A DNA stretch of 64,000 nt from an uncultured Gammaproteobacteria bacterium. GTDB taxonomy: Bacteria > Patescibacteriota > Microgenomatia > CAZXEC01. Within the stretch, counting starts at the first letter, position 1; each line of letters opens with the position of its first letter. The notes under the pieces were generated by a model that was given only the letters and a program-made list of their open reading frames with translations, had not been told where the DNA came from and did no database searches. Shown here one piece after another: positions 10,875 to 59,148 of this stretch. A program made the translations under genes and the position numbers. The stretch is taken from the NCBI GenBank assembly GCA_964639595.1, contig CAZXEC010000001.1, forward strand, positions 254,498 through 318,497, read 5' to 3'.

Positions 10875-10884
10875 GATATATCGT

Positions 10885-34244: not shown

Positions 34245-34262
34245 AAGAGAAACTAATAGACA

Positions 34263-34811
34263 GTTGCATTCCTTAATTCTTCTTAAGAGGTTCTGCAGGC
34301 TGTTTATACAAATCGAGTTCTATCTCCATACTTAGTTGCATTCCTTAATTCTTCTTAAGAGGTTCTGCAGGGCGTCAAAACGAGCTGGTTAAGTTGAAGT
34401 CTTAACGGTTGCATTCCTTAATTCTTCTTAAGAGGTTCTGCAGGCAAAAAGGGACGCATAACTGCATCCCGTAATTTAAGTTGCATTCCTTAATTCTTCT
34501 TAAGAGGTTCTGCAGGTTCTGATATATAATAGTTAAAAGAAGCCCGAAGTTGAAGTTGCATTCCTTAATTCTTCTTAAGAGGTTCTGCAGGTTCTAATAA
34601 TAACTGCTTAAACCCTCGTTTACTTCCAAAGTTGCATTCCTTAATTCTTCTTAAGAGGTTCTGCAGGTTAAATGCAGCTATGAAATATCATGGAGAATTT
34701 GGTTGCATTCCTTAATTCTTCTTAAGAGGTTCTGCAGGGGTGATGGCACCGCCAAAACAGGTGTTGAAGATATAGTTGCATTCCTTAATTCTTCTTAAGA
34801 GGTTCTGCAGG
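34263..34811 (-). CRISPR. CRISPR array of 8 identical 37-bp repeats (plus strand GTTGCATTCCTTAATTCTTCTTAAGAGGTTCTGCAGG) and 7 spacers of 34-39 bp
   Basis: Repeats start at 34263, 34335, 34408, 34480, 34555, 34631, 34702 and 34775. An internal CTTAA/TTAAG stem is present. The minus-strand transcription call is inferred from the cas gene orientation and from the repeat reverse complement ending in AAGGAATGCAAC (see findings). Confidence 0.95.
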
Positions 34812-35095
34812 AGCTCTGAATTTGAGGCTAAGAATTGACCTTTTAACCCCCAAATTTTTAGTGAACCCCTTTTCTGCATAAAATATGTCAAGGTTCGCAG
34901 ATTCTCTGTAAAACCCAAAGAGAAGAACTAAAAATTGTAGTGTTCAGTCCACTTTAGTCCTAAGGGGCTAAAGTTTTCCTATTGCTTTTGAACGGTAACG
35001 AGGACCTAAAGCAAGCCCACTCTACTGCTGTGCAACACAGCCCTTGCATAATTCTCAAGCATATAGCTGAGAACTCGTCGTTAAAAACGATAATA
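34812..35095. ncRNA. Non-coding region between the array and the effector gene; candidate leader and tracrRNA locus
   Basis: 284 bp without a plausible ORF. It contains repeat-like fragments: TCAAGGTTCGCAGATTCTC (34888-34906) and CTTGCATAATTCTCAAGC (35043-35060, resembling the repeat 5' half with two short deletions), plus a GCTGTG-CAA-CACAGC hairpin (35026-35040). Confidence 0.3.
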
Positions 35096-36853
35096 TCAGA
35101 TTTTTATCTCTTTGTAAAGCGCATTTGCGATATTGATTGCGGCATTTAGATCGGCATTCATATTATGGCCACATTCTCGATTAACACATCTAAAAAAACC
35201 TTTGTTTCTGTCACCAGTCTTATGACACATTGAACATATTTGCGATGTATACTCTGGATTTATAAATCTTATCGGTATTCCGGCTTTCAAGGCTTTGTAT
35301 TCAATGAGTTTTTGTAGTTTACCATAAGAAAAATTTGATAGCATAAATCTTATTTTTCTTTCTTGTAATGCAGTTCCTTTCTTGATTCTTTTTTCTCCTT
35401 GGGTAATTTTTAGCTTTTCCATTGCAATCACGATTGGTTTTAATTCTTTGGCCTGATTAACAATTTGTCTTGAAAAGTTATGGAGCATATAATCTGAAAT
35501 TCTAGCTACTTTTTTCCCAAACTGCGCCCGACGTTTATTCACACCTTTTGTCCCCGTAAACTTTTTCCTAATGAGCTGGTACTTTGTCTTTTGGGCCATT
35601 AATCCGTGGCCAGGATAAAATTTGATGAAGCAAGGTTTACCATTGGGTTTATCGACCACAGCCGTAACAGCCGTCTGATTAACGCCTCTATCTATACCCA
35701 TAATTTTAGTCTTGCTATCTATTTTCGGTTCCTCAAATTCTTGAACTAGAGGATAGCTGAGGTAAAAATTGCCCCGTTTTCTTAGCAATAGAGGATATTT
35801 AAGCTCTCCCTCTTTAATTTTTCTTATGATATCCAGAAACCAACTCTTATTTTTTTCTGATTTTATAGTATTAACGATCAGAGTAAATTTCTCTTGTTTG
35901 CCATCAATACTCAATTTCACAAATTGCTCGTTAATATCTTTTACAGATGTGTTTTGTAAATCGACAATATTCCCCTTGAAAAGTACTTTTGTTTCTTTGA
36001 GTCTTTTTTGAAGCTTTTCAATGGTTTTATTTAACGCTTCTATGGTCCCTCGTATTGTAGATTCCGTTTTACCTCTTGATGGATTCTCCTTAAAAAGAAT
36101 ATGTTTATAGCGATCAACTCTTTGGTTTTGCTGACGAGGTAATGTAAATCTACTTGTAGTGTTTTTTTGTTTTATTTCATCTTTTAATCGATTTAAAACA
36201 TCTAACACTCCTGCGTTATTTTTGTAACGTTCTAACCATTTTTTGAGAGTAGTTGATGCGATCTTGTCATTATCTAAAACTTCTTGCCATTCAATTGCTC
36301 GACGTTGCGTTATAAAAATAGTTGAGTACACATTATTTAATTGTTTTTTGTATGAATTCAGCGTATCGTTTGCGCGTTTAAAAGCTAACGCATACTCTGT
36401 GCCGGGCAATTTGACAGCATCTCTCACATCTCCATATTGGCTACGTTTTCTATTGCCTGTTGCATATAAAATCTTTCTAATTGAGAATTCTTTATTCCAA
36501 CATTTGCCACAAACTAATTCTATGCCGTCCTTCTTTTTGCGGATTATTAATGATTTCTGCCCACAAGTCTTACATATTTTATTACGGTCGTTCCTGTTCT
36601 TACCTTCTGGTTTGTGCCCTTTGCAGGATACATAACTTTTTAAGCAATAAGAGCACTTTCCATTCAATCCTTGGCTGCCACCTGTGTCCTTTTTAATAAA
36701 CTCATAATTGTTTCGTTGACCCTCTTCTACTATTTGAATTTTTTTCGCAAAAAAGTTGACAGCCTTACTAAATCTACTAAAGTATGACTCTAAAAAATCT
36801 TCCTGTGTTAAAGTAGGAACAAACTTAAAACTATATGAGGTAGTAAGTTTCAT
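35096..36853 (-). CDS. Compact type V effector, TnpB-like Cas12f/Cas14-like nuclease (585 aa)
   Basis: RuvC-I (IMGIDRGVNQTAV), RuvC-II (IVIAMEKLK) and RuvC-III (NADLNAAINIANALY) motifs. A CxxC...CxxC zinc finger (YTSQICSMCHK ... CVNRECGH) sits between RuvC-II and RuvC-III. There is an extra N-terminal Cys-rich zinc ribbon (CSYC ... CKTCGQ ... CGKCW). It is located between cas4 and the array. Confidence 0.85.
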   Translation of the reverse strand: MKLTTSYSFKFVPTLTQEDFLESYFSRFSKAVNFFAKKIQIVEEGQRNNYEFIKKDTGGSQGLNGKCSYCLKSYVSCKGHKPEGKNRNDRNKICKTCGQKSLIIRKKKDGIELVCGKCWNKEFSIRKILYATGNRKRSQYGDVRDAVKLPGTEYALAFKRANDTLNSYKKQLNNVYSTIFITQRRAIEWQEVLDNDKIASTTLKKWLERYKNNAGVLDVLNRLKDEIKQKNTTSRFTLPRQQNQRVDRYKHILFKENPSRGKTESTIRGTIEALNKTIEKLQKRLKETKVLFKGNIVDLQNTSVKDINEQFVKLSIDGKQEKFTLIVNTIKSEKNKSWFLDIIRKIKEGELKYPLLLRKRGNFYLSYPLVQEFEEPKIDSKTKIMGIDRGVNQTAVTAVVDKPNGKPCFIKFYPGHGLMAQKTKYQLIRKKFTGTKGVNKRRAQFGKKVARISDYMLHNFSRQIVNQAKELKPIVIAMEKLKITQGEKRIKKGTALQERKIRFMLSNFSYGKLQKLIEYKALKAGIPIRFINPEYTSQICSMCHKTGDRNKGFFRCVNRECGHNMNADLNAAINIANALYKEIKI

Positions 36854-36855
36854 CG

Positions 36856-37452
36856 TTAGTTAATATTCTTATAACAATTATCAATTGCTTTTCTCTTATT
36901 CCTTGTCCCCTTTGGTAATCTTTCTGATTGTATTATACTCTCAATCTCGTTAAAAATCTTTAATAATTCATCTTTTAGTGCTTTTGTAATCCTTACCCTT
37001 ATAAAGTCCCCTGATTTTAGAAACTTAACAAAACCAAACGGCACTTTATATCCTAACCTCTCTTCTATTAATAAAGCCTCCATGATAACCTGAAATTTTT
37101 GTGACAGATACAAAAATTTAGGTTTTGAACTATATTTTACTTGAATAGGATAAGCTTCATGTAGTTTTTTGTTAATTGCAACACAATCTACCTTTGTAGA
37201 GATTTTATACTTACTAGATGTCAAGTATACGTCATATATTTTAGCTAAAAACGGCAACTCTTTGATTACCTTATTTCTTCTTGACTTTCTAGAGAATTCG
37301 ACATATTTTTGCCTACCCTCGATTTCCTTAATTGTTGTAGCTTGGGGAATTTTGAGGACGTGAATGTAATATATAATTCTAGGATCATAAAGGTAATTCA
37401 TTAAGTCGGTGGCTGTTAAATAATTTTGCATCGGTTTAAATAAATATAACAT
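36856..37452 (-). CDS. cas4: Cas4-like PD-(D/E)xK nuclease-fold protein lacking the Fe-S cysteine cluster
   Basis: The N-terminus YLTATDLMNYLYDPRIIYY matches the Cas4 hTGTDhxxYxYCPR signature with Cys replaced by Asp. There is a central VDCVAI ... PIQVKY motif and a QKFQVIMEALLIEE motif (QhxxY-like). Only one C-terminal Cys is present instead of the usual three. It overlaps cas2 by 17 nt. Confidence 0.6.
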   Translation of the reverse strand: MLYLFKPMQNYLTATDLMNYLYDPRIIYYIHVLKIPQATTIKEIEGRQKYVEFSRKSRRNKVIKELPFLAKIYDVYLTSSKYKISTKVDCVAINKKLHEAYPIQVKYSSKPKFLYLSQKFQVIMEALLIEERLGYKVPFGFVKFLKSGDFIRVRITKALKDELLKIFNEIESIIQSERLPKGTRNKRKAIDNCYKNIN

Positions 37453-37720
37453 CTCTATTTTTTATTAAAAACTCATTGGCCGGCCCGAATGCAATCCTCT
37501 TTGAAAACTCCTCCTCACTTGATGGGAAGATGAGAACCTTGTCATTTTTTGATTTCATTATCTTTTTAATCTCTAAACTTAGCATTTCTGCCTTATTTCT
37601 AGTCAAATTTCCTGAAAAGGCACTTTTTTGTATCCGTTTTAACCCGTAATCCTTACAGAGATTGGATACTTTACTCCGAATATTATTTTTGGAAATATCG
37701 TAGATAACCCAATAGACCAT
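37436..37720 (-). CDS. cas2: Cas2 (94 aa)
   Basis: MVYWVIYDIS ... N-terminus with the catalytic Asp, typical length, and position between cas1 and cas4. Confidence 0.85.
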   Translation of the reverse strand: MVYWVIYDISKNNIRSKVSNLCKDYGLKRIQKSAFSGNLTRNKAEMLSLEIKKIMKSKNDKVLIFPSSEEEFSKRIAFGPANEFLIKNRDVIFI

Positions 37721-37724
37721 AGTC

Positions 37725-38714
37725 CTACTTATAAATATAAGGTGAAAAATCTCTTTTATTACCTAATAGATATGCAGAAATTTCCCTAGTCTGTGCAAGT
37801 ATGATATCTCTCAAAATTAATTTCTTACCTTTGTAAGTAAGTTTGGTATTTAGTCTGTTGATTACAGCTTGAATTAGTTTTCTTTTACCTTTTTGTGATA
37901 GTGTGAGATCACCGGTTTTATCAAAATCCTTACCATTAATCTGTTTCCTATTAAACAATGTGACTATCGCTCTGTCCGAAATAGCTACTCTAAATAACTC
38001 TGTGACGTCTAAGACCAGTGACGGTTTACCGTATCTATCTGTATGATAGAAGCCCAAGTATGGGTCAAGTCCAGCTATAATGCAGGCTCTCTCAACTTCA
38101 GAATAGAGCATGCCATATGCATAATTTAGGCAGACATTAAACATGTCTTCACCGTTTTTATTTCTTTTGGTAAATCCTGTTATAAGCCCCAGGCCCCTGA
38201 AGTATTTTGCTGCAGTTGCCCCCTCCACTCCTAAAAGTGTGCTTCTTAGTTTATCAATAGGATTACTAGTAATGAGCTTGCTTTTTGGGAATTTTGTTTT
38301 GCTTAACTGATTTAATTGTGTATTAGTTTTTCTGTCTTTTGACAGAGATTTCAAATAATTAATCTGACTTCTAATTTTGCCTTCAACGAATTTAACAATT
38401 AGATGCTTCCCCTTTTTTGATAAATATGCCTCAAGTTGTTTTCTACGAGTTAAGGTCGTTCCACCCATATATGGACTATACGTTCTGGCGAAGGGTTTCC
38501 CTTTCCAATCTAGATAAACAATATCAATATGCTTTTCAATGGCTAACTTTACAGCTTCTGTGGAGATACTGGCAGGGGCGGTAAATAACACTTGTCTGAT
38601 TGTATCAGCTGAATATTCACTTTTTTTACCTTTATTATTTACTATCAGCCTATTACCAGACTTAGTTAGGTAAGTTCCAACTTCTTCTATTGCAAGAACA
38701 GAGTTATTAATCAT
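37725..38714 (-). CDS. cas1: Cas1 integrase (329 aa)
   Basis: Typical Cas1 layout with a conserved acidic/His cluster (NYAYGMLYSEVERA ... GFYHTDRYGKPSLVLDVTELFR). It is the first gene of the minus-strand cas1-cas2-cas4-cas12 operon. Confidence 0.9.
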   Translation of the reverse strand: MINNSVLAIEEVGTYLTKSGNRLIVNNKGKKSEYSADTIRQVLFTAPASISTEAVKLAIEKHIDIVYLDWKGKPFARTYSPYMGGTTLTRRKQLEAYLSKKGKHLIVKFVEGKIRSQINYLKSLSKDRKTNTQLNQLSKTKFPKSKLITSNPIDKLRSTLLGVEGATAAKYFRGLGLITGFTKRNKNGEDMFNVCLNYAYGMLYSEVERACIIAGLDPYLGFYHTDRYGKPSLVLDVTELFRVAISDRAIVTLFNRKQINGKDFDKTGDLTLSQKGKRKLIQAVINRLNTKLTYKGKKLILRDIILAQTREISAYLLGNKRDFSPYIYK

Positions 38715-43505: not shown

Positions 43506-44768
43506 ATGCAGAGAGCTCAAGCAATTCTTTCAGATAAATTTATCTCCGGCAATTTTTTGATGTTTTTCGGAGCCATGTTTTTAAACGCCGGCGGCTACAT
43601 CTATCATTTTTTAATGATCCGTTTTTTAGGACCGCAGGATTATGGAGCACTGGCTGCCCTGTTTTCTATCCTGTATATTTTGATTGCCCCGGCCATGGTA
43701 TTAAACGCGGTGGTAGTGCGCTTTGTGGCTCAGGCTTTTGGCCGGGATGATATAGATTTTATTGCCTCGTTTTTTAGCCAGTTAACCAGGTATATCTTTT
43801 TAATCGGCGGCACCATCACTCTTGTTTTTATCGCTGCTTCGGCGCAGATTGGGCATTTTTTGAATATTGCCAACACCGGCTCGGTGATGATTGTGGGAGC
43901 TACCTCGCTATTTTTGTTTGCCACCATGTTTAACCGGAGTATTTTTCAGGGTCTGACCAGATTTGGAATCTTTACACTTAGCGGTATTATGGAAACGGTT
44001 TTGAAAGTGGTACTGGCTTTAACTTTTGTAGCAATTGGTTTTTCGGTATTTGGAGCCATTGGCGGAATTTTGATTGCCGATGCGGCAGTTTTTATCACCA
44101 CTTTTGTGCTACTCAAAATACACTTTGCCCAAAACAACACCCAGTTAAAACTTCCCTTCGGCGAAATCATCCGCTTTACCATTCCGGTATTTTTTAGTTT
44201 GGTGGCGATGACCAGTTTTTATAGCACTGATATTATTTTGGTCAAACACTTTTTCTCGCCGCTGGAGGCTGGTTATTATGCTTTTTTGGCTCTGGCCGGA
44301 AAAATTATTTTCTTTGTGTCATCTTCAGTGGTAATGGTGATGTTTCCGATGGTAGCCCAAAAGAAAGAACGAGGAGAAAAATATACCAAATATTTCCTCT
44401 TAACCTTGCTGTCGATTTTGGTTATTTCCGGCTCGGCCATTTTGATTTATTTCTTCTTTCCCGAGTTGATAGTATTTTTATTCCAAAGAAGCGAATATCT
44501 GGCGGTTGCCCCCCTGTTGGGTATTTTTGGAGTGTTTATTTTGCTGTTTGCCCTATGTTGGGCTGCTGTTAATTTCTTCCTGTCCATTGGTCTGGTCAAA
44601 ATCTCAATTTTGCCGATCATCTTTGCGGTTTTGCAGGTTATAGGTATTTGGTTTTTCCATGGTTCACTACTGGAAGTGATTAAAGTTTCCATCATCAGCC
44701 TTTCTTTACTTCTTTCGTGCCTGTTGTTATACTTTGCCCATGCCAAAACCTACAACAAAATCCACTAG
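43506..44768 (+). CDS. Wzx-like/MOP-family flippase (polysaccharide biosynthesis protein)
   Basis: 420 aa and about 12-14 TM helices. Confidence 0.6.
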   Translation: MQRAQAILSDKFISGNFLMFFGAMFLNAGGYIYHFLMIRFLGPQDYGALAALFSILYILIAPAMVLNAVVVRFVAQAFGRDDIDFIASFFSQLTRYIFLIGGTITLVFIAASAQIGHFLNIANTGSVMIVGATSLFLFATMFNRSIFQGLTRFGIFTLSGIMETVLKVVLALTFVAIGFSVFGAIGGILIADAAVFITTFVLLKIHFAQNNTQLKLPFGEIIRFTIPVFFSLVAMTSFYSTDIILVKHFFSPLEAGYYAFLALAGKIIFFVSSSVVMVMFPMVAQKKERGEKYTKYFLLTLLSILVISGSAILIYFFFPELIVFLFQRSEYLAVAPLLGIFGVFILLFALCWAAVNFFLSIGLVKISILPIIFAVLQVIGIWFFHGSLLEVIKVSIISLSLLLSCLLLYFAHAKTYNKIH

Positions 44769-47173: not shown

Positions 47174-47746
47174 ATGAGCAAAATTTTAGGCTGCTTGTTT
47201 TTAACATTGCTGTTATCTGTCATTACAATTTATCCGGCTCTAGCCCAAATCCCGAAAGCCACCTCTACCCAGACGATATCACCAGTTAAAATTAACTCTT
47301 ACGAATTATTTTATCCAATTGTAGCCGGCATCACCGAAGGCGATTTTTGGTATAATTTAAAGCTGTTAAGAGAAGCCATTGCCGAAAAATTAACTTTTGG
47401 AGATATCAAAAAAGCCGATTATCATCTGATCTTATCAAAAAAACGTTTAGTTGAAGCGGAAAAACTATTACTGGTTAAAAAAGATTTGGCAAATGCTAAA
47501 AAAACTTTAGAAAAATCAACTCGAGAGCTAAAAACTGCCCTATCTTTGGCACAAACAGCTCAAGAGAAGGGTAAGAAAGTCAAAGACCTTTACCAGGCAA
47601 TTTCCAGTGAGGCATCAAAAGAAGTGTTATTCCTAGCCTCCCTTAAAGCCCAACTGCAACCGGATTGGCAAGACCCAGTGCAGAAAGCCCAAGAAGCGGC
47701 CGGCTCGGTAATTGCCGAGATCCAGGTAATTAACATTAACCAGTAA
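47174..47746 (+). CDS. Secreted coiled-coil protein (signal peptide), function unknown
   Basis: MSKILGCLFLTLLLSVITIYPALA signal peptide, then a Lys/Glu/Ala-rich helical region. Confidence 0.5.
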   Translation: MSKILGCLFLTLLLSVITIYPALAQIPKATSTQTISPVKINSYELFYPIVAGITEGDFWYNLKLLREAIAEKLTFGDIKKADYHLILSKKRLVEAEKLLLVKKDLANAKKTLEKSTRELKTALSLAQTAQEKGKKVKDLYQAISSEASKEVLFLASLKAQLQPDWQDPVQKAQEAAGSVIAEIQVININQ

Positions 47747-47796: not shown

Positions 47797-48693
47797 ATGC
47801 TTTTTAAATTCGCCAGGCTTTTATTAATTTGTGCTTCTTTTGCTTTCCTTTTTCTTAATCTGCTTAGTAATTGGCAACAGGCCAAACTAACACTGACTAC
47901 GATCGACAGCTGGTATTTACTATTATCGTTTATGTCAATTTTCCCGGTGTTTGTGTTGGCTGGGGTGTCTTGGCATCTAGTAATCAGGCAGCTGGGAGGA
48001 ATAAGTGTACTTCACGACAATTTACCAATCTGGATTCAAGCTAATCTAACTCGATATGTTCCCGGTGCAATTTGGCAATATCTAAGTAAGTTTTATGTAT
48101 CTGTTCAGTCTGGTCTATCTAGAGCCGTAGCACTGGCTGCGCTGGTTTTGGAGATTGTTTTCGTGATAATTGCCGCCGGTTTATTATCAATTCTTTTTGT
48201 TCCGTGGCAAGAGATGGGAATTGATGCAGGAATTATTTGGATTTTGGCGCCGTTGGCGGTTTTACCAATTTTTTCCCAGCCAATTTTTAGTGTGGTGGTA
48301 AATTTAATTAAAAAAGTTCTTCGAATTGATATTTCAGGAAAAATTAATTGGCCATGGGAAGCATCTTTAAAAATCTTGCCTTTATATATCCTCAATTTCC
48401 TCTTGAATGGATTATCACTGGTTTTCCTTATATACGCTTTTGGCTATTTGTCGGAAATTTCATTTTGGCAGGTGGTGGGAATTTTTAGCCTGTCTTGGCT
48501 GATTGGTTATTTAACTGTTTTTGCTCCGGCAGGTTTGGGAGTGACAGAGGTATCGCTGGCGTATTTATTGTCGTTTTTTATACCTTTTCCCTCTGCTGTT
48601 TTAATATCAATTATTTTTAGATTGCTTTTGATTGTGGCAGAGGTGAGCACTTTTATGTTAGTCTTTGCCGCAAGGAGCTGGAAGTTGTTTTAA
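47797..48693 (+). CDS. Membrane protein with a lysylphosphatidylglycerol-synthase-TM-like (UPF0104, flippase-like) domain
   Basis: 298 aa and about 8 TM helices. It sits next to a GT2 gene, as is common for this family. Confidence 0.45.
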   Translation: MLFKFARLLLICASFAFLFLNLLSNWQQAKLTLTTIDSWYLLLSFMSIFPVFVLAGVSWHLVIRQLGGISVLHDNLPIWIQANLTRYVPGAIWQYLSKFYVSVQSGLSRAVALAALVLEIVFVIIAAGLLSILFVPWQEMGIDAGIIWILAPLAVLPIFSQPIFSVVVNLIKKVLRIDISGKINWPWEASLKILPLYILNFLLNGLSLVFLIYAFGYLSEISFWQVVGIFSLSWLIGYLTVFAPAGLGVTEVSLAYLLSFFIPFPSAVLISIIFRLLLIVAEVSTFMLVFAARSWKLF

Positions 48694-49364
48694 TGCATAA
48701 AGGGCTAACCATCTCGATAGTAATTCCTTGTTTTAATGAGGAAAAGGGAATAGCCGGTGTTCTCAAATCGATCCCTAGGCAAGTAGATGAAATTATAGTA
48801 GTTGATAATAATTCTACAGATGCTACTGCTCAAGTTGCCAGGGAACATGGCGCCAAAGTTATCAAAGAAACCAAACAGGGTTATGGGGCAGCCATCAAAG
48901 CGGGTTTGGCTCGGGTAAAAACAGACCTGGTAGTGGCAGTGGATGGTGATGCCACTTATCCTATTGACCAGACAGTTGCGATTGTTAATTTTATGTTAAA
49001 GAATAAGGCTGATTTTGTTTCCTGTGACCGCTTCTCCAAACCCGCCAATTCCATGAACTGGAAAAATTGGTTGGGAAATAAGATTCTGACCCTGGCAACG
49101 CGGATGTTATTTGGCTTTCCAGTCCAGGATTCTCAATCAGGGATGTGGATTTTCCGAAATGCCGTGGTGCCTTTTATGAGGCTGACTTCCGACGGCATGA
49201 GCTTGTCGGAAGAGATAAAACTGGAAGCTTTCAGGCATCCGCAAATCAGTTTTCTGGAATACCCGATTGACTATTATGCCAGAGTAGGCAGTAGTAAACT
49301 GAATCTCTGGAGAGATGGGTTTGGCAATTTGCTGTTTCTTTTTACCAAAAAGCTGTCTTTTTGA
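48693..49364 (+). CDS. GT2 glycosyltransferase (Dpm1-like)
   Basis: LTISIVIPCFNEEKGI ... IIVVDNNSTDAT and AVDGD. Confidence 0.8.
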   Translation: MHKGLTISIVIPCFNEEKGIAGVLKSIPRQVDEIIVVDNNSTDATAQVAREHGAKVIKETKQGYGAAIKAGLARVKTDLVVAVDGDATYPIDQTVAIVNFMLKNKADFVSCDRFSKPANSMNWKNWLGNKILTLATRMLFGFPVQDSQSGMWIFRNAVVPFMRLTSDGMSLSEEIKLEAFRHPQISFLEYPIDYYARVGSSKLNLWRDGFGNLLFLFTKKLSF

Positions 49365-49403
49365 GCGCTCTTGTAGTTTCTAGACAGTGTTTTCAGATAT
49401 ACT

Positions 49404-51557
49404 ATGAATATTAAAATGGCCTCGCTTGTTGCTGAATTACGGGCTCGGTATATCTGGATTATTCCAGCTATTTTTTTGGCCGTCGGCTTTTACACTAATA
49501 GCCACTATGGCATCAATTGGGATGAATCACAACATTTTGCCAGAGGATCAGCCTATTTACACCTGTTTTTAACTGGCAAGACCGACTACGGCAACTTGCC
49601 GTATACGCCGCCGCCTAAAGGTCCATCGGAATACGGTAATATAAGGGGAGCTCAACAGCTGCAGGAAAAACTGCAAAAAAATCCTCAGTTGACCACTAAT
49701 AATTTTAGGCGCAGTTATTATCAGCACGACTCCTGGAACGGTAAATATTATTTGGAAAATGATAGCGGCCATCCGCCGCTGAACGGTATTTTGGCAGCCT
49801 TGACCAATTATATCTTCTATCAAAAATTAGGTATTATATCTGATCTGGATGCCTATCACATGTTCGGCATAATTTTGGCATCATCGCTAGTACTGGCGGT
49901 GGGATTATTCACTAGGCATTTTTTTGGGATCTTTGCCGGGATTATTGCTCAAATCTCGCTTAGTTTATATCCGGTTTTTTTAGGCGAGCTGCATTTTAAC
50001 ATTAAAGATCCGCCTGAAGCTGCTTTCTATGCCTTCTGTGTGATGTCATTCGCGATGGGGATGACTAAAAAAAGCTGGAGGTGGATTATTTTATCGGCAA
50101 TTTTTTTTGGAATGGCGCTGGGGACAAAATTTAATATCCTGTTTGCGCCATTGATCATAATTCCTTGGCTGGCAATTTTCTTGTTCGAACCTTTAGGGTC
50201 ATCGATTAGTAAATGGTGGATTTCGATATGGAGTAAGATTAATGGGAAAATTGTGTTGGCGTTTTTAGCATATCCGGTGATTGTTTTGGCGATATTTTTT
50301 GGCACTTGGCCGTTTTTGTGGCAATCGCCAATGGAAAATTTTGCCAAAATTGTCCAATATTACATCATTGAAGGAACAACAGCTGTTTATCAGCCGGCTT
50401 TTGTACTGGCTAATGGTTGGAACAGTTATGCTATCAAGTATATTATTTGGACGACGCCACTGGCCATTTTATTTTTAGCCTCCTTGGGTATTACCAGATC
50501 ATTGTATTTGATTTGGAGGGATAAAAGTCATATTTCGCTACTGGTGCTTTTGTGGCTGGCGGTACCAATTTTAAGAGTGTCTTATCCCCATACCACGATC
50601 TATGGCGGAATTAGGCATATCATGGAATATATTCCGGCCTTGGTGATTTTGGCCGGCTTGGGCGCTTCAGTTCTCTTACAATTTGCCCATTGTATCATGG
50701 CCAAACTTAACATATTAGAGCCTGTCAAGTTAAACAAAGTTTTCTATGCGGTTATCATTGTTGCTTTTGTTCCAACTCTTGTCACCATGATTAGTATCCA
50801 TCCCAATGAGAATGTTTACTTTAATTCCATAATCGGCTTGAAAGGGGCATATCAGAAGGATATCCCCGGATGGGGCAGTAGTTATGGCAATACTTATCAG
50901 CAGGGTGTTGATTGGTTGAATAAATATGCTCCTGTCAATTCACGGGTAGGTTTGGTAACCGGAACCATGGTTAACGTGCCAAGAATTAGATTTCGTTCCG
51001 ATATAGAATTTAATAATTTATCATGGAGTGGACCTTTTCAAAAAGGTGAATATATGATGGATATGTATTACTATCAATTTCCGATCCGCTCTTATGCTTT
51101 GGAGTTTTTAGAGAAATATTTGACTCCTGTATATGAGGTAAAAGTAGATGGCGTGACCATTTTTAAGATCTGGAAAAACGATCGGCAACACACTAGGGCA
51201 GAATATCTGAAAAAAACCGTTGAGTATCCGGCTCAAGTATCCAAACAGGACGACAACTTACTCTTAACTTTAACAGAACCGATTCCGCTGACTAAAATTG
51301 ACCTGGCATTTAGTAATCAATTTTGTGAAAAGTTGGCAAACGGGACTGTGTATATATCCCCAGATGGTGTCAAATGGGAAAGTCAAGCAGAGCCCACATC
51401 AGAATTGCAAGTAACCATGGATATTGAACCTAAAGACAGAAGACTGGTTTATTTATTTGCGTCAAAAAATGCCAAGTATATCAAAGTTGATCCGCGTAAC
51501 AAAAATTCTTGCCTTTTCACCATCAATCAAGTCCGTGTTTTTGGCTTTGAAAAGTAA
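49404..51557 (+). CDS. GT-C-type polytopic membrane glycosyltransferase with a C-terminal beta-sandwich (discoidin-like?) domain
   Basis: 717 aa with an N-terminal multi-TM region. The C-terminal ~150 aa are hydrophilic and end in ...CLFTINQVRVFGFEK. Confidence 0.45.
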   Translation: MNIKMASLVAELRARYIWIIPAIFLAVGFYTNSHYGINWDESQHFARGSAYLHLFLTGKTDYGNLPYTPPPKGPSEYGNIRGAQQLQEKLQKNPQLTTNNFRRSYYQHDSWNGKYYLENDSGHPPLNGILAALTNYIFYQKLGIISDLDAYHMFGIILASSLVLAVGLFTRHFFGIFAGIIAQISLSLYPVFLGELHFNIKDPPEAAFYAFCVMSFAMGMTKKSWRWIILSAIFFGMALGTKFNILFAPLIIIPWLAIFLFEPLGSSISKWWISIWSKINGKIVLAFLAYPVIVLAIFFGTWPFLWQSPMENFAKIVQYYIIEGTTAVYQPAFVLANGWNSYAIKYIIWTTPLAILFLASLGITRSLYLIWRDKSHISLLVLLWLAVPILRVSYPHTTIYGGIRHIMEYIPALVILAGLGASVLLQFAHCIMAKLNILEPVKLNKVFYAVIIVAFVPTLVTMISIHPNENVYFNSIIGLKGAYQKDIPGWGSSYGNTYQQGVDWLNKYAPVNSRVGLVTGTMVNVPRIRFRSDIEFNNLSWSGPFQKGEYMMDMYYYQFPIRSYALEFLEKYLTPVYEVKVDGVTIFKIWKNDRQHTRAEYLKKTVEYPAQVSKQDDNLLLTLTEPIPLTKIDLAFSNQFCEKLANGTVYISPDGVKWESQAEPTSELQVTMDIEPKDRRLVYLFASKNAKYIKVDPRNKNSCLFTINQVRVFGFEK

Positions 51558-53154: not shown

Positions 53155-54186
53155 TTAGTTTGCCTCTTTGATGGAGTATTCCTGGTCATGTCGACGGTTG
53201 GAGTGAATGACTATTTCTGCCAGCAGTCCGGTCAGTATTAATTGGATGCCTCCTAGTACCAGCAGGCCGCCTAAAAACAATAGCGGATAGCGATATTCGA
53301 TGGTGCCGGTAGTCAGGCGTAGATAAGTAATATAAAGACCGATGGCAAACCCTATTGAAAATATCACCAAACCTATCCTGCCAAAAAATTGACCAGGCTT
53401 ATTGACGAATCCTGATAGAAAAAGGACTGTCAGGAAATCAAGAAAGCCAACCAGCATTCTGCCCCAACCGTATTTTGATTTACCGAATTGTCTGTGGCGG
53501 TGATTGATTTCCACTTCAGCAATGGAAAAACCTTTTTGGTGAGCCAAAACCGGAATAAACCGGTGAAGTTCGCCATAAACCTGGATGGATTTTACTACTT
53601 CTCGCCTGTAGGCTTTGAACCCGCAATTAAAATCATGCAGTTTGATGCCGGTCAGGCCGGAGGTGATTTTATTAAATATCCAGGACGGTAGAGTTTTTGA
53701 TATGGGATCATGACGCCTTTTTTTCCAGCCAGATACCAGATCAGAACCGGCTTTGATCTTATCCAGAAATAGCGGTAATGAGGCCGGGTCGTCTTGTAGG
53801 TCCCCATCCATGGTGATCACAGTATTTCCCCAGGCCTGGGAAAACCCGGCCGACAGGGCCGCTGATTTACCGAAATTACGACGAAAGGTGATTATTTTAA
53901 TGATGTCAGGCTGCTCGGCATGTAGTTGCTTTAGAGTCAGAGGCGTATTATCACTTGACCCGTCATCAATGAAGACTATCTCATAGTTTTTATGAACATT
54001 TGAGGCTGATTTTGCTATTTCATCCACCAACTGCCGGAGAGATTGGGCTTCGTTCAAAACCGGGATTATAAACGATAAGTCCAGATCACTATTGCTTGAT
54101 TTTTGCTTGTTCATAGGGTATACCTGATATGGTCCATTTATACCTTTTTTAAGGCTAAAAAACAACCTGGACTTACCCGACCTCAT
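53155..54186 (-). CDS. GT2 polyprenol-phosphate glycosyltransferase with a C-terminal TM anchor (GtrB/ArnC-like)
   Basis: LSFIIPVLNEAQSL ... IVFIDDGSSDNT and TMDGDLQDD, plus 2-3 C-terminal TM helices. The likely true start is the Met at 54114 (MNKQKSS...). Confidence 0.8.
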   Translation of the reverse strand: MRSGKSRLFFSLKKGINGPYQVYPMNKQKSSNSDLDLSFIIPVLNEAQSLRQLVDEIAKSASNVHKNYEIVFIDDGSSDNTPLTLKQLHAEQPDIIKIITFRRNFGKSAALSAGFSQAWGNTVITMDGDLQDDPASLPLFLDKIKAGSDLVSGWKKRRHDPISKTLPSWIFNKITSGLTGIKLHDFNCGFKAYRREVVKSIQVYGELHRFIPVLAHQKGFSIAEVEINHRHRQFGKSKYGWGRMLVGFLDFLTVLFLSGFVNKPGQFFGRIGLVIFSIGFAIGLYITYLRLTTGTIEYRYPLLFLGGLLVLGGIQLILTGLLAEIVIHSNRRHDQEYSIKEAN

Positions 54187-54278: not shown

Positions 54279-54307
54279 TTGACAATAAGCGGCAGGTAGG
54301 CTATATT
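54279..54307 (+). promoter_or_regulatory. Near-consensus sigma70 promoter TTGACA-17 nt-TATATT upstream of the epimerase gene. An 11-nt direct repeat AAGGATTGACA is present twice (54218-54228 and 54274-54284)
   Basis: Read directly in the divergent intergenic region 54187-54336. Confidence 0.45.
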
Positions 54308-54336: not shown

Positions 54337-55491
54337 ATGGAACAGCCGATCAGAAAACGAGTTGTTATAACAGGCGGTGCAGGACTGGTGGGTACGGAAT
54401 GTTGCAGGTTATTTGCAGACAGGGACTGGGAAGTAATTTCTGTAGATAACTACTTAAGAGGCCATTTTTTCGGCGAAGAAGGATCCACCCGTGATAACAT
54501 TGACGATACCCTGAAAGTCTATCCTAATATCCGTCACATAGAGGGTGATATCAGGGATAATTTTTTGATGACTGAAGTAATCCGCGGTTGTGATGCGGTT
54601 ATCCACACGGCATCTCAACCATCTCATCCCCGCTCTATTGAAATTCCACTGGAGGATTTTTCCGTTAATGCCAGTGGCACGCTTAACCTGCTGGAAATTA
54701 CCAGACAGCAGGCGCCGCGGGCGGTTTTTATATTTTGCTCATCAGATAAAGTGTATGGAGAGAATTCCAACCTGCCGGTAGTCGAAAAAGCCACCAGGTA
54801 TGACTACATTGATCGTGATGGGATCGATGAAACAATGACTATTGACCAAACTATTCATACCCCTTTTGGCGTTTCTAAAGTCGCCGGTGATTTATATACC
54901 CAGGAATATGCTAAATTGTATGGGTTGACTGCCGGTGTTTTTAGAATGGGTTGTATTACCGGCGCTAGTGCCAAAGCAGTAGAGTTGCATAATTGGGAAC
55001 CGCATTTTATCAAGAAAAATATGAGTGGAGAAACTCTTAATATTTTTGGTTTTGGCGGTAAACAGGTCAGAGATGTAATTCACGCCAGAGACCTGGCGCT
55101 ATTATTTTGGGAATTTGTCCAGAGTCCCAGAAGAGGAGAAGTTTATAATGTGGGCGGAGGAAGAAAAAATTCCATATCACTGCTGGAGTCTTTTGATCTA
55201 ATTGAGAGTATTACCGGCAAGAAAATGAAATGGCAACTAAAAGAAGCCAGGGAAGGCGACCATCAGGTTTATATTAGTGATATTTCCAAAGTTAAGAGCC
55301 ATTATCCCAATTGGGATATTAGAATTGGCCTGCCAGAAATTTTCCGTGATATCTATAATGCTTTACTCAAAAAACAGGCAGACCATCAAATGCCTACCAC
55401 CCAACAAAACGGCCAAATTAAACCAGAAGGCGGTACTGTCAACATCACTATCCACCTTAATGGCCTCAAGCCTGAAATCTCTGTCCATTAA
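54337..55491 (+). CDS. NAD-dependent sugar-nucleotide epimerase/dehydratase (SDR family)
   Basis: VVITGGAGLVGTEC Rossmann motif and a catalytic S ... YxxxK region (SSDKVYG ... YGVSKVAGD). Confidence 0.85.
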   Translation: MEQPIRKRVVITGGAGLVGTECCRLFADRDWEVISVDNYLRGHFFGEEGSTRDNIDDTLKVYPNIRHIEGDIRDNFLMTEVIRGCDAVIHTASQPSHPRSIEIPLEDFSVNASGTLNLLEITRQQAPRAVFIFCSSDKVYGENSNLPVVEKATRYDYIDRDGIDETMTIDQTIHTPFGVSKVAGDLYTQEYAKLYGLTAGVFRMGCITGASAKAVELHNWEPHFIKKNMSGETLNIFGFGGKQVRDVIHARDLALLFWEFVQSPRRGEVYNVGGGRKNSISLLESFDLIESITGKKMKWQLKEAREGDHQVYISDISKVKSHYPNWDIRIGLPEIFRDIYNALLKKQADHQMPTTQQNGQIKPEGGTVNITIHLNGLKPEISVH

Positions 55492-55506: not shown

Positions 55507-58500
55507 ATGGTAAAAAATAAACCAGCCAGCATTCATCGGGCCAATGCCGTCAAAACCCACTTTGATGCCACAGCTGCAGAGTATGACTATTGGAAAAAAA
55601 AGGCCCGCTACTATTATTCATTCGTCAAAAATATTTATAAGAGCTATATTCCCCCAGGCCGCGATGTTTTAGAAATAGGCTGCGGCACCGGTGAGATTTT
55701 AGCCAGTGTTTCTCCCGGCCTTGGCGTCGGCATTGACAACTCTCTCCTGATGATTAAGCAAGCTCGCCGAAAATTTCCCCAGTATAAGTTTTTAGTTGAT
55801 GATGCTCAGGCCATTTCTAAAATTAAGCAGCAATTCAGTTATATTATCATGTCCGATCTGGTAGAACATGTTTACGATGTGCAGACAATTTTGGAGCAGG
55901 CCAGAAAATTGTTAAAGCCGCAAGGCCAGATAATTTTAACCTGCATCAATCCTTTATGGAGTCCGATTTTTGATCTGGCGGAAAAATTGAAATTGAAAGC
56001 TGCCGAAGGGCCGCATAAGTGGGTTAGCTCTCTGCATCTTAAAAATATGCTCGAGCAAGCCGGTTACCGGATCAAAGAATCAGGCCATACTTTTATTATC
56101 CCCAAGAAAATTCCCCTTCTTTCAGACCTGATCAACCGGATCTTACCCAAATTACCGGTTTTAAGGCAGTTGTGCATTATCCAATATTTTGTGGCAGAAG
56201 CTGCCCCTTTTCCCCAACAGGTCGCCTATTCGATCAGTGTGGTGATACCCTGTTTCAACGAAGAAGATAATGTTCAGGATTGTATCAGGCAAGTTCCCTC
56301 AATGGGTAAATTTACCGAAATTATTGTGGTTGATGACGGATCAGGCGACCAAACTGCCATCCGCGCCCGCGCTTTAATAAGCAAATATCCTAATTTGAAA
56401 GTTATCTCTTACAAACCCAATAGAGGTAAAGTATGGGCGGTTAAGGAAGGCCTTGATCAGGCTAAAGGAGATATTGTCATGATTTGGGATGCGGATCGGA
56501 CAGTCCCGGCCGAGGAATTGCCCAGATTTTATGATGTGATTGCCCATGGCCAGGGGAGCTTTGTCAACGGTACCAGAATGGTTTATCCCATGGAGAGGCA
56601 AGCCATGAAGACTCTTAATGTTTTAGGCAACACGTTTTTTGGCTGGCTATACAGTTGGATTTTATCGACCACCATCACCGATACCCTGTGCGGGACTAAA
56701 GCACTGCTTAAAAAAGATTACCTAAATATTAAGATGGGCACAGAGCCCTGGGGAGATTTTGACCTGCTGTTTGGAGCCGGCAGGCTGGGTTTGACAATCA
56801 GAGAAGCCCCTGTCCATTATAAAATGAGAGTGGCCGGCCAGTCTAAAATGCGCACTTTAAGATATGGCATGGTAGTTGCCAAAATGTCCCTGATCGGAAT
56901 TTGGCGGTTTAAAATTAAAGGCTTTTTCAAAAAAAAAATCTCTGCAGTTTCCCGGCTGATTAATAATAATTATTTATTGTGGTTAATTTTTTTGCTGGCT
57001 CTTGTTTTGAGAATAATGGGGGTTTTCCCCAACCTGCTGGGCCATCCGGATGAGGCGCATACCCAAAATTATTCCCGGGCGCTGGTAGCCAATATCTTAA
57101 CTAAGGGTGATTTTGACCCTCATACTTACAAGTACGGATCGTTTATTTTTTATTTGCAAGCCGCGGTAGCTATCCCAATTTTAACAGTCCCCTATTTTTA
57201 TGAGCAATTTGTTGATATTGGCAAAAATCCGATTTCTGTTTTGGTGCCATTCTCTGAATATATATCAGACATCGGACCTCATATTCACAGGGAAGCCATA
57301 TTAAGTGCCGGCCGCGGTGCCACAGCTGTCGTGGGAGCATTAACTATTTTTTTGGTCTATCAAATTGCCAAAAAACTATTTGGCAAGCCGGTGGGGTTAA
57401 TATCTGCCTTGATTTTGGCAGTACTGCCTTTTCATGTCAGAGAATCTCATTACATCACCACTGATATACCGGCTCTATTTTTTATCTTGCTGGCGGTAAA
57501 CTGGATGGTTAATTTATGGCAGACTAATAAATTAAGATGGTATATTTTATCAGGACTGGCCATCGGTTATTCATCAAGTGTCAGGTATTTCCCAATTGCT
57601 CTGTTGGTCTTGCCACTGGCCTGCCTGTTTGTGGCCCAAAAAGATAAGGCTTGGGTCTTGAAAGTCATGATCGGTTTAGTTATGGTAGCGGTGGGACTGT
57701 TTTTGGGAGTGCCGTTTCTGCCGTTTAATGATGTCAACAGAGCTATTTTTAAATATGAAATGGAGAATATTGTATTGCCGTTTTACTCGACAACCATCTC
57801 CACATATTTTACCTCTTGGGCAGCATATATCACCTCCGCAGGCAGCTTGCCGCTGCCATCATTAGATAGCCTATTGCCGCAAAAATTTTCCCCTTTTCAT
57901 GCCGGTTTTCTGTTTAACCACGGCCTCACTCCGGCCTTAACTCTAACATCGTTATTAGGCGCGCTGATTGGCGTATTTAGTTCTTTTAAGAAGACTATTT
58001 TTCTGTTGGCTATACCGGCGGCTACTTTTGTTTATGCCTCTTTTTATTTAAGGAGCATTTATGAAAGAACCACTCTGCCGGTAACTGCTTTTGTTGCCAT
58101 TTTTGCCGGCTACTATCTTTATTTTATTTGGCAGAAAATCACCCAGCATCAGTTGGGTTGGCCTGGCAAAATTATGTTCCTGGTTCTGGCAGGAGTTATC
58201 TTGTGGCTGCCGTTTTATTCATCTTTATCCTCCAGTTGGGCCTGCTCCCAGCCAACCATTATTCAAGAAGGCCAAACCTGGATTGATCAAAATATATCGG
58301 TGGATGATAAAATTGCCTACCAGCAGGCCGGTATTTCTTTTCCAGTCAAACCTTTTAAGTTTTTAGAAGAGCTGCATCCACGTAAGGATTTCTCTTTGGA
58401 AGAAATCAGAGCAGCCGGCAATGATTATGCCTTTATTCATGGCGGGGCTTTGGGCTACTATACTTATCCCTATATTAATGATTTTTTTATTACCCCTGTT

Positions 58501-59148
58501 GAGCTGTATGATAATTCCTATATTCCTTTGGTTCTGAAAGAATATCAGACAAGGGCTGCCTTATTAAAAAAAGTCGCCAGACCTTTTATGTGTACGGCGG
58601 CAGAATTATTCTTTTTTAGGCTGCCGCCGCCAATTCCCCAACAACCCAATCTGGCCAAAGAGTTTAATTTCAACAACGTCAATGATTTAGATTTTTGGCA
58701 GATTCAGAATTTTGGAAGAATAACTAATAAGATTGAGATGATCCATAACCTGCAAGAAGGAATAGGCAAAAAAGGGGTTTTAGAGTATCGCTGGAGCAGC
58801 ATTTCTTATACAGCGCCGCGGTTCGTTTCCAGGCCGATTCCTGTTTTGTCTGGTAAGAAATATACAATAGAAGGATGGATTAAATCCAGCAATAATTTAG
58901 AACCAGACCAAAGAGATGGATTTTTGAGAGTTGATTTTTACAAAGAGATGAATTTTAACTCATTGCTGCCCGGTGATGTGGTGGCCCTAACTCCCAGAAT
59001 TTATGGTCCATCAGGTTGGAAGTTTGTTACAGTTTCTGCCCAAGCCCCTGAAAAAGTAGTCTATCTGACCATTTCCTTCCAAATATCCGGATCACAAACT
59101 ACCGGTTCGTTTTTTGTTGATGATATTAAAATCTGGCAAGAGGAGTAG
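55507..59148 (+). CDS. Tri-functional fusion (1213 aa): class I SAM methyltransferase + GT2 glycosyltransferase + PMT/ArnT-like GT-C membrane domain + C-terminal carbohydrate-binding-like beta domain
   Basis: Methyltransferase motif I VLEIGCGTGEIL (aa ~55-66). GT2 motifs ISVVIPCFNEEDNV, IIVVDDGSGDQT and MIWDADR (aa ~240-340). Multi-TM region with a GHPDEAHTQNY loop. Hydrophilic C-terminal ~250 aa. Confidence 0.7.
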   Translation: MVKNKPASIHRANAVKTHFDATAAEYDYWKKKARYYYSFVKNIYKSYIPPGRDVLEIGCGTGEILASVSPGLGVGIDNSLLMIKQARRKFPQYKFLVDDAQAISKIKQQFSYIIMSDLVEHVYDVQTILEQARKLLKPQGQIILTCINPLWSPIFDLAEKLKLKAAEGPHKWVSSLHLKNMLEQAGYRIKESGHTFIIPKKIPLLSDLINRILPKLPVLRQLCIIQYFVAEAAPFPQQVAYSISVVIPCFNEEDNVQDCIRQVPSMGKFTEIIVVDDGSGDQTAIRARALISKYPNLKVISYKPNRGKVWAVKEGLDQAKGDIVMIWDADRTVPAEELPRFYDVIAHGQGSFVNGTRMVYPMERQAMKTLNVLGNTFFGWLYSWILSTTITDTLCGTKALLKKDYLNIKMGTEPWGDFDLLFGAGRLGLTIREAPVHYKMRVAGQSKMRTLRYGMVVAKMSLIGIWRFKIKGFFKKKISAVSRLINNNYLLWLIFLLALVLRIMGVFPNLLGHPDEAHTQNYSRALVANILTKGDFDPHTYKYGSFIFYLQAAVAIPILTVPYFYEQFVDIGKNPISVLVPFSEYISDIGPHIHREAILSAGRGATAVVGALTIFLVYQIAKKLFGKPVGLISALILAVLPFHVRESHYITTDIPALFFILLAVNWMVNLWQTNKLRWYILSGLAIGYSSSVRYFPIALLVLPLACLFVAQKDKAWVLKVMIGLVMVAVGLFLGVPFLPFNDVNRAIFKYEMENIVLPFYSTTISTYFTSWAAYITSAGSLPLPSLDSLLPQKFSPFHAGFLFNHGLTPALTLTSLLGALIGVFSSFKKTIFLLAIPAATFVYASFYLRSIYERTTLPVTAFVAIFAGYYLYFIWQKITQHQLGWPGKIMFLVLAGVILWLPFYSSLSSSWACSQPTIIQEGQTWIDQNISVDDKIAYQQAGISFPVKPFKFLEELHPRKDFSLEEIRAAGNDYAFIHGGALGYYTYPYINDFFITPVELYDNSYIPLVLKEYQTRAALLKKVARPFMCTAAELFFFRLPPPIPQQPNLAKEFNFNNVNDLDFWQIQNFGRITNKIEMIHNLQEGIGKKGVLEYRWSSISYTAPRFVSRPIPVLSGKKYTIEGWIKSSNNLEPDQRDGFLRVDFYKEMNFNSLLPGDVVALTPRIYGPSGWKFVTVSAQAPEKVVYLTISFQISGSQTTGSFFVDDIKIWQEE

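Follow-up and report, generated by a model that had tools for sequence, protein, structure and literature searches.

We describe a gene in a 64-kb stretch, called the window in the following, of the contig CAZXEC010000001.1 (assembly GCA_964639595.1). The gene encodes a fusion of a methyltransferase (MT), a glycosyltransferase of family GT2, a polytopic glycosyltransferase of the GT-C fold, an α/β region and a domain resembling carbohydrate-binding modules (CBMs). It occupies positions 55507..59148 (+) as a single uninterrupted open reading frame (ORF) with an ATG start, 1213 codons plus the stop and no internal stop, just as a preliminary description of this DNA had claimed; the one other ORF of at least 80 amino acids nested within it, of 91 amino acids, lies at 58091..58366 (+) in a different frame. 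The product is identical to GenBank entry MBI4039344.1, ‘glycosyltransferase [Candidatus Daviesbacteria bacterium]’, and is on record with all 1213 residues from 3 contigs of up to 458 kb.

Pfam-A domains, counted above their gathering cut-offs, comprise methyltransferase, GT2 and PMT-type GT-C models, in agreement with the domain types that the preliminary description had read from the letters; the four motifs that it quoted (VLEIGCGTG, VVIPCFNEE, VVDDGSGDQT and WDADR) are likewise all found where it had placed them. Structural models of the two halves were computed with AlphaFold2 from family alignments, one for residues 1–505 (predicted local distance difference test (pLDDT) 85.7, predicted template modelling score (pTM) 0.82) and one for residues 471–1213 (pLDDT 80.1, pTM 0.75).

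By Pfam, AlphaFold2 and Foldseek, the N-terminal domain (residues 1–235; 55507..56211, +), predicted to be cytoplasmic, is a class I methyltransferase dependent on S-adenosylmethionine (SAM). The Pfam families Methyltransf_23/25/31/11/12 match residues 30–190 (E 1.5e-15 to 1e-11), and hallmarks of the class are present: a Rossmann-type fold (pLDDT ~90), the SAM-binding GxGxG motif I (VLEIGCGTG, residues 54–62; 55666..55692, +) and an acidic post-I residue, D77, within GVGIDNS (55723-55743, +). Across 24 members of the family that shares the MT-GT2 didomain, drawn from several phyla, G58 and G62 never vary, and D77 hardly does. No specific substrate family matches the domain: its Foldseek neighbours (E ~1e-12), namely 3l8d, 2gs9, 6f5z, RebM, MitM and CcbJ, are generic small-molecule methyltransferases and include no lipid-sugar methyltransferase.

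The second domain (residues 236–449; 56212..56853, +) has a GT-A fold with the DDxS region and the DxD metal site, and falls into the polyprenyl-phosphate glycosyltransferase class by Pfam, PDB sequence search and Foldseek. Glycos_transf_2 covers residues 244–396 (E 2.6e-26); the best PDB entries by sequence are 5mlz, the dolichyl-phosphate mannose (Dol-P-Man) synthase (DPMS) of P. furiosus (2.3e-18), ArnC (~1e-12) and GtrB (7e-10); and Foldseek against the PDB, run on the model of residues 1–505, again ranks ArnC, DPMS and GtrB at the top (E ~1e-13). The characteristic motifs follow one another on the forward strand as VVIPCFNEE (residues ~245–253), VVDDGSGDQT with its DDG (274–283), WDADR (327–331; 56485-56499), TDTLCGTK (391–398; 56677-56700) and RVAGQSK (441–447; 56827-56847). 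The 5mlz alignment spans residues 241–502, from the first β-strand through the interface helix to the start of the membrane domain, including the beginning of the first transmembrane helix (TM1), and ends at residue 282 of the 5mlz chain. It pairs DDGSGDQT with DDDSPDRT, WDADRTVP with MDADLQHP, TDTLCGTKAL with KDPVSGFFAL, RVAGQSK with RARGESK, and PVHYKMRVAGQSKMR with PFTFGIRARGESKLK. Both TDTLCGTK and RVAGQSK are invariant in homologs, and the patterns D-x-x-[SC]-G and R-x-x-G-x-SK are present together with the interface helix. As the best solved relatives by sequence as well as by fold are 5mlz, ArnC and GtrB, we assign the domain to the polyprenyl-phosphate sugar synthases, as had been proposed, and predict the corresponding activity. 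It is no equivalog, though, of any named enzyme, be it ArnC, GtrB, AglJ or DPMS.

Downstream of the GT2 domain lies a basic amphipathic helix (residues 450–487, TLRYGMVVAKMSLIGIWRFKIKGFFKKKISAVSRLINN; 56854..56967, +), seen both in the AlphaFold2 model and in the 5mlz alignment. It is single, long and rich in Lys and Arg, runs straight into TM1 (residues 489–507) and, to judge by the alignment, is the counterpart of the interface helices in Dol-P-Man synthase. The GT2 domain lacks C-terminal transmembrane helices of its own; the interface helix leads instead into TM1 of the GT-C domain, and the membrane anchor of the synthase is thus not absent but replaced by the GT-C bundle.

The GT-C domain itself (residues 488–915; 56968..58251, +) is a polytopic membrane domain of GT-C_A type, PMT_2/ArnT-like by Pfam and AlphaFold2. 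PMT_2 matches residues 600–738 (E 1.1e-18) and PMT residues 602–743 (E 1.7e-12). In the loop after TM1, eight residues past the helix, the tetrapeptide H513-P514-D515-E516 (57043..57054, +) is invariant in 18 aligned homologs, and nine further GT-C proteins encoded in the window have a TM1-x-DE arrangement at the corresponding place; D515 and E516 are a putative catalytic acidic pair. When the fold is compared with known GT-C enzymes, ALG12, AglB and ArnT score equally well, so the GT-C fold does not discriminate between acceptor types.

In the model of residues 471–1213, the helical membrane bundle is followed by an α/β region after the last transmembrane helix (residues 916–1045; 58252..58641, +; AlphaFold2 secondary structure) and by a C-terminal jelly-roll β-sandwich (residues 1046–1213; 58642..59145, +), which is the β-rich domain foreseen in the preliminary description. 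No Pfam-A model matches residues ~745–1213 at E <= 0.1. The sandwich has a jelly-roll fold resembling that of CBM4, CBM16 and CBM22, at 12–16% identity to CBMs, belongs by sequence to no CBM family, and is presumed to bind the acceptor glycan. The conserved Trp, Arg, Asp and Gln residues, together with two invariant cysteines (C913 and C1029, which may form a disulfide), would fit an extracytoplasmic glycan-binding module. A MIR domain is not matched by Pfam anywhere in the protein, and the predicted extracytoplasmic module is this sandwich. At the other end, hydropathy reveals no transmembrane helix before residue 489, which puts the methyltransferase and GT2 domains on the same side of the membrane as the N-terminus of the GT-C domain. 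In solved GT-C enzymes this N-terminus is cytoplasmic and the active site faces outward.

The fusion of these modules is a real gene and not an assembly error. A second protein of 1213 residues, 87% identical (P0002), has the same architecture at a syntenic locus from a separate sequencing run. Twelve further homologs (P0003-P0014; 1111–1140 residues, 43–47% identity) come from several runs and assemblies and align unbroken, in one frame, over the GT2, GT-C and C-terminal domains, and at four homologous loci (L002-L005) tblastn finds every segment in a single reading frame. As the same single frame is found in independent assemblies at 87% and at 43–47% identity, the fusion is no artefact, and the search for it in related genomes, which the preliminary description had proposed, comes out in its favour. 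The junction itself (residues 440–520) is conserved in the homologs with its R-x-x-G-x-SK motif, basic amphipathic helix, TM1 and invariant HPDE, and the GC content is even along the gene.

These homologs differ from the protein described here in their N-terminus. In P0003-P0014, the first ~100 residues of the methyltransferase are gone, including motif I, while its C-terminal half (residues ~105–235 of our protein) is kept, so that they evidently retain a decayed domain; examples are the genes at 1082-4462 of L002 and 7001-10360 of L003 (alignment A1). That a stand-alone ortholog nearby compensates for this decay is not supported: methyltransferase genes do occur close by at L002, L003 and L004, but those of L002 and L004 have no tblastn match to the domain, and that of L003 is just 28% identical.

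Most relatives, however, are split. When 1.84 billion cluster representatives were searched exhaustively with phmmer, 658 proteins matched at E <= 1e-30, of which we inspected the best 150. About 100 of these, ~450–500 residues long, match just residues ~15–470 (MT-GT2; 34–46% identity), about 30, of ~700–770 residues, match just residues ~470–1210 (GT-C plus CBM; 30–45% identity), and only P0011 and P0032 span both halves. Separate genes therefore predominate, and the fusion is rare and lineage-specific. It unites two modules that are widespread as stand-alone proteins, MT-GT2 (~470 residues) and GT-C-CBM (~720 residues). The preliminary description would have taken orthologs encoded as separate genes for a refutation; most relatives are indeed split, yet the fused form is real too. 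A family-alignment scan of GTDB species genomes found no full-length fusion in the 80 loci listed of at least 600 matches to the generic GT2 pattern, a sample and not a census; it did bring up the unfused Lentimicrobiaceae locus (L008) described below.

The split modules also occur side by side. The nearest stand-alone GT-C-CBM proteins adjoin separate GT2 genes (L086, L090 and L091); at L086 a stand-alone methyltransferase is adjacent too, and the GT2 is of the same class, with 27% identity and a transmembrane region of its own. In a metagenome-assembled genome of the Lentimicrobiaceae (L008), a 477-residue MT-GT2 protein, 32–43% identical over the two domains, is followed 27 nt on by a 505-residue PMT_2 gene. 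We do not regard this locus as a strict unfused ortholog but as an analogous pairing only, as the adjacent PMT_2 protein has no BLASTP similarity to the fused GT-C domain. At L002, the locus of P0014, two more stand-alone GT-C-CBM paralogs (6245-8401 and 10157-12268; 29–32% identical to our protein in the GT-C domain and 22–29% in the C-terminal region) flank a gene for a GDSL lipase-like protein.

Furthermore, the MT-GT2 module has entered a series of other fusions. Four proteins (P0035, P0117, P0139 and P0038) have the reverse order GT-C-MT-GT2 with a GT-C domain of PMT_2 type; in P0039 and P0137, MT-GT2 is fused to a UPF0104/LPG_synthase_TM domain, and in P0019 and P0155 to a second methyltransferase. 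An N-terminal extended short-chain dehydrogenase/reductase (SDR) resembling CDP-tyvelose 2-epimerase (TyvE) is fused to it in 13 proteins (P0015-18, P0020-27 and P0029) as well as in P0093. P0041 carries a GT-C domain of YfhO type fused to a related GT2, which is 33% identical across the GT2 region, and no methyltransferase domain is detected. The independent fusions to GT-C in both orders and to each of the other components argue strongly that MT-GT2, GT-C, the flippase-like protein and the SDR act in one pathway.

At the locus itself, an ortholog of this fused SDR is encoded directly upstream, co-oriented and 15 nt away (54337..55491, +; 384 residues). It resembles CDP-tyvelose 2-epimerase (PDB 1orr and 9rl0, E ~5e-46), and its orthologs lie beside the homologs of the fusion gene, 92% identical in L001 (6829-7983) and 47% identical in L003 (5820-6899, -) and L004 (5718-6899, -). 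The SDR is a conserved partner of MT-GT2 and, from this adjacency and the fusions elsewhere, is presumed to supply or modify its nucleoside-diphosphate sugar. The catalytic triad of the epimerase is Thr/Tyr/Lys, with Tyr164-x3-Lys168 (PMC13098431). In our protein, the catalytic Tyr is replaced by Phe (HTPFGVSK vs HSPYGCSK of 1orr and 9rl0) and the residue beside the triad Thr is Asp instead of Asn. The orthologs of L001, L003 and L004 and 13/13 SDR-MT-GT2 fusions examined share the Phe, which points to a whole SDR subfamily without the canonical catalytic base. A scan for promoters and terminators found only matches to consensus sequences, among them a promoter-like site upstream of the SDR gene (TTGACA-17-TATATT, 54279-54307), and is not drawn on as evidence.

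On the other strand, divergent from the SDR and fusion genes, lies a gene for a canonical ArnC/PgfS-like GT2 of 343 residues with two C-terminal transmembrane helices of its own (53155-54186, -). It matches the NCBIfam models of ArnC (9e-51) and PgfS (7e-44), both below cut-off, and places a second, conventional polyprenyl-phosphate sugar synthase directly beside the fused one.

Candidates for the flippase are found further away. An unfused triplet, which is not part of the fusion gene (47797..51557, +; Pfam/NCBIfam), comprises a UPF0104/LPG_synthase_TM protein of 298 residues (47797-48693), a candidate flippase in trans, a soluble GT2 of 223 residues resembling AglJ and Dol-P-hexose transferases, whose start overlaps the previous stop (48693-49364), and a GT-C protein of 717 residues (49404-51557). 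In MprF and archaeal AglD, UPF0104 forms the predicted lipid flippase domain, and in archaea it occurs in a conserved neighbourhood with AglD-like GT2 and PMT/STT3-like GT-C genes (PMC5898192), which the triplet matches (Makarova et al. 2015). The 717-residue GT-C protein is no close paralog of the GT-C domain in the fusion, as the two are alike in just a 109-residue core, at 26% identity. The triplet is preceded by a gene for a DUF5667 protein (47174-47746). Two Wzx-like genes (5908-7380 and 43506-44768) encode the other flippase candidates in the window. The GtrA family had no match among the ORFs scanned, which included three small ORFs of the window (4-399, 33266-33733 and 33753-34244).

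Taken together, the gene would unite, in a natural fusion, two components of a ‘three-component’ extracytoplasmic glycosylation system with two accessory modules, a reading to which we would give a probability of about 0.7. The domain classes follow from homology, and the mechanistic steps are predictions built on them. At the cytoplasmic face, the GT2 domain (residues 236–449), held at the membrane by the helix of residues 450–487 that runs into TM1 of the GT-C domain, would charge polyprenyl phosphate with a single sugar taken from a nucleotide sugar. The TyvE-like SDR of the neighbouring gene, 15 nt upstream, would probably supply or modify that nucleotide sugar. The methyltransferase, whose SAM motifs are intact here, would most likely methylate the lipid-linked or nucleotide-linked sugar in the cytoplasm, a speculative step. 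The lipid-linked sugar would then be flipped by the product of another gene, for which the UPF0104 protein (47797-48693) and the two Wzx-like proteins are candidates. Finally, the GT-C domain (residues 488–915), with the invariant D515-E516 on its first loop, would transfer the sugar to an acceptor at the outer face, and the CBM-like sandwich may help recognize a glycan acceptor, such as a polysaccharide linked to the cell wall or S-layer, rather than lipid A. That donor synthesis and GT-C transfer are united in one protein, as the preliminary description had suggested, is well supported by homology and by the Rosetta-stone fusions.

Known three-component systems are GtrB/GtrA/Gtr* of Shigella and Salmonella, CsbB/GtcA/YfhO for lipoteichoic acid, and ArnC/ArnEF/ArnT. 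In these, a GT2 enzyme loads one sugar onto polyprenyl phosphate at the cytoplasmic face and a GT-C enzyme transfers it to an acceptor at the outer face; the GT2 domain described here matches ArnC and GtrB, and the GT-C domain matches ArnT. Unlike in those systems, one polypeptide here holds the synthase and the transferase together with two further modules, a methyltransferase and a CBM-like domain, and no flippase of the GtrA, ArnE/F or GtcA type was found beside the gene. Moreover, the GT2 domain is anchored by the GT-C bundle, whereas GtrB and ArnC have two C-terminal transmembrane helices of their own and the P. furiosus DPMS has four. The latter enzyme (5mlz) is the closest solved relative of residues 241–502, with its GT-A fold, DAD motif, R-x-x-G-x-SK motif and interface helices all aligning, but it has a four-helix membrane domain in place of the ~13-helix GT-C domain and reads DADLQHP in place of DADRTVP.

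Likewise, the AglD/AglR/AglS proteins of Haloferax volcanii together with AglP offer a similar set of parts, namely a GT2 Dol-P-hexose synthase, a GT-C enzyme acting outside and a SAM-dependent methyltransferase. AglP methylates a lipid-linked glycan (PMC3871713), and AglD combines its GT2 with a flippase-like UPF0104 domain (PMC5898192). In Haloferax, however, the synthase is fused to this putative flippase and not to GT-C, and the methyltransferase and GT-C are separate proteins; besides, the host here is a bacterium of the candidate phyla radiation (CPR), and the matches to archaeal AglJ and Dol-P-hexose transferase are far below the equivalog cut-offs. For the C-terminal half, the precedents are GT-C enzymes with a CBM, such as Citrobacter ORF12 (GT136) and mycobacterial EmbA/B/C and AftD, in which the CBM binds the acceptor polysaccharide (PMC11127046). 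In them, a GT-C domain precedes an extracytoplasmic CBM, as it precedes the predicted extracytoplasmic CBM-like module in our protein, and Emb and AftD are among its fold matches. In contrast, they are not fused to a donor synthase and belong to other sequence families, whereas our GT-C domain is of PMT_2 type. In a limited literature search, we found no description of a GT2-GT-C or MT-GT2-GT-C fusion or of GT-C biology in the CPR, which does not prove that none exists.

Several observations weigh against the reading as a fused two-thirds of such a system. The first concern the donor. The DxDLQxP signature of 5mlz and ArnC, which GtrB also carries, is not matched: the sequence reads DADRTVP here and DADR[TS][VI][PL] in the family, and this replacement of DxDLQ by DADRT marks a divergent subfamily. 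Among the NCBIfam equivalog models (AglJ, Dol-P hexose transferase, ArnC, PgfS and PpgS), the best for the GT2 domain are AglJ with 84.9 bits (cut-off 325) and Dol-P hexose transferase with 72.2 (cut-off 375), and all scores are far below cut-off, so the donor sugar is not assignable by family. The role of the SDR in sugar supply is uncertain, given that it lacks the catalytic Tyr. Others concern the geometry. No flippase was found fused to the gene or adjoining it, and the steps of donor synthesis and transfer are hence not physically continuous. Since GT2 and the methyltransferase are predicted to be cytoplasmic and the active sites of GT-C enzymes face outward, a flipping step for the lipid-linked sugar is still needed, and the ‘channelled’ synthesis of the preliminary description sits awkwardly with this topology. 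The transmembrane segments, about 12 by hydropathy and 12–13 overall, leave the orientation of the C-terminus ambiguous by count, and it is from homology, the CBM fold and the conserved cysteines that we infer an outward C-terminal domain; the halves were modelled separately, and the geometry between the domains lies outside both models. Lastly, the 43–47% identical full-length homologs lack the ~100 N-terminal residues and motif I of the methyltransferase, which makes methylation dispensable for the coupling of GT2 to GT-C and speaks against the earlier view that it is an integral part of the fusion.

The alternatives to this fused-system reading differ in how well they fare. A possible, though not favoured, explanation is that the GT-C domain acts as a PMT-like protein O-glycosyltransferase on Ser/Thr of secreted or S-layer proteins and does not modify glycans. 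The Pfam match to PMT is limited to the central transmembrane region, and eukaryotic and actinobacterial PMTs (GT39) carry a MIR β-trefoil where our protein has another module, predicted to be extracytoplasmic; the domain is not a member of the GT39 PMTs and should not be filed as one. The lack of a MIR domain and the CBM4/16/22-like sandwich in its place, as in ORF12/GT136, Emb and AftD, favour, though not decisively, a glycan acceptor over a protein one; the equal scores of ALG12, AglB and ArnT leave the fold without a vote between the types of acceptor.

It is rather doubtful that the methyltransferase is a structural or oligomerization scaffold, or a SAM-sensing regulator of GT2, and that the glycan is not methylated. 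Such a role would agree with the retention of the C-terminal half of the fold in P0003-P0014 after the loss of motif I, with the single confident MT+GT2 unit in the AlphaFold2 model (pTM 0.82), which is compatible with packing, and with the generic nature of the fold neighbours, none of which acts on lipid-linked sugars. However, the conserved motif I glycines and acidic post-I residue in the 24 family members, and the complete MT-GT2 didomain in ~100 cluster representatives, argue for selection on SAM binding, and AglP provides the precedent of a class I methyltransferase acting on a dolichol-phosphate-linked glycan (PMC3871713).

Less probable is that the GT2 domain is a conventional cytoplasmic transferase with a lipid-linked oligosaccharide or some other molecule as its acceptor, in which case the donor of the GT-C domain would be unrelated and the fusion would only co-localize the two steps. 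The scores below the NCBIfam cut-offs and the altered DxDLQxP signature described above would allow this, as would the diversity of the other GT2 genes in the window, of which there are at least 13, and the gene at 53155-54186 for a canonical GtrB/ArnC-like GT2 that brings transmembrane helices of its own. Yet among solved structures the best matches, in sequence as in fold, come from precisely the three families of polyprenyl-phosphate GT2 enzymes; the domain retains R-x-x-G-x-SK, D-x-x-C-G and the amphipathic helix behind them; and fusions of the module to GT-C or, as in AglD (PMC5898192), to flippase-like UPF0104 recur.

We consider it quite unlikely that the protein is a self-sufficient machine, in which the sugar made by the GT2 domain is methylated by the N-terminal domain while lipid-linked, crosses the membrane along the fused GT-C bundle with no need of a dedicated flippase, and then serves the GT-C active site in cis; if so, it would deliver a methylated monosaccharide from a lipid-monophosphate donor, and the GT-C bundle would double as a scramblase for lipid-linked sugars. 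Finally, an artefactual ORF, be it through a missed stop or frameshift or through a chimeric join of adjacent MT-GT2 and GT-C genes, might be suspected because the homologs of each half are mostly separate proteins and adjacent unfused pairs occur, but it is effectively excluded by the identical protein on 3 contigs, the 87% identical protein at a syntenic locus of another run, the 12 single-frame homologs from different assemblies, the conserved junction and the uniform GC content.

The wider window is a glycosylation island with ~15 GT-C-like, at least 13 GT2, 3 GT4 and 2 Wzx-like genes as well as several methyltransferases and SDRs. Its GT-C-like genes start at 409, 2686, 4269, 17192, 22101, 24428, 26454, 28158, 29807, 31536, 38850, 42331, 49404, 51564 and 55507 and are of the PMT_2, PMT, YfhO and TMEM260-like types, some by weak sub-threshold matches (e.g. 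Alg6). The island is interrupted by a CRISPR-Cas locus (34258-38714), with a GC content down to 0.32 at 36–38 kb. It consists of an array of eight copies of a 37-nt repeat, GTTGCATTCCTTAATTCTTCTTAAGAGGTTCTGCAGG (~34263-34811, spacing 71–76), and of genes on the reverse strand for a 585-residue protein with a Cas12f1-like TNB domain (35096-36853), Cas4 (36856-37452) and Cas1 (37725-38714). A 1151-residue ORF between a Wzx-like and a GT2 gene (7419-10874, +) has no Pfam-A match at E <= 0.001.

The novelty of the fused protein lies in a rare four-module arrangement of known parts, and its mechanism would be a rearrangement of known parts as well. Its public name is merely ‘glycosyltransferase’. 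Together with its sister fusions (GT-C-MT-GT2, UPF0104-MT-GT2 and TyvE-like SDR-MT-GT2), it serves as a Rosetta stone, which ties four otherwise anonymous gene families, found in the CPR and in further uncultured bacteria, to a single predicted pathway that would decorate the cell surface with a possibly methylated sugar. With the donor synthase and the GT-C transferase in one polypeptide, it would also be a convenient structural target for the hand-over of lipid-linked sugars between the leaflets of the membrane. Moreover, the archaeal UPF0104/GT2/GT-C neighbourhood is now found in a CPR bacterium too, in a 64-kb island with ~15 GT-C genes.

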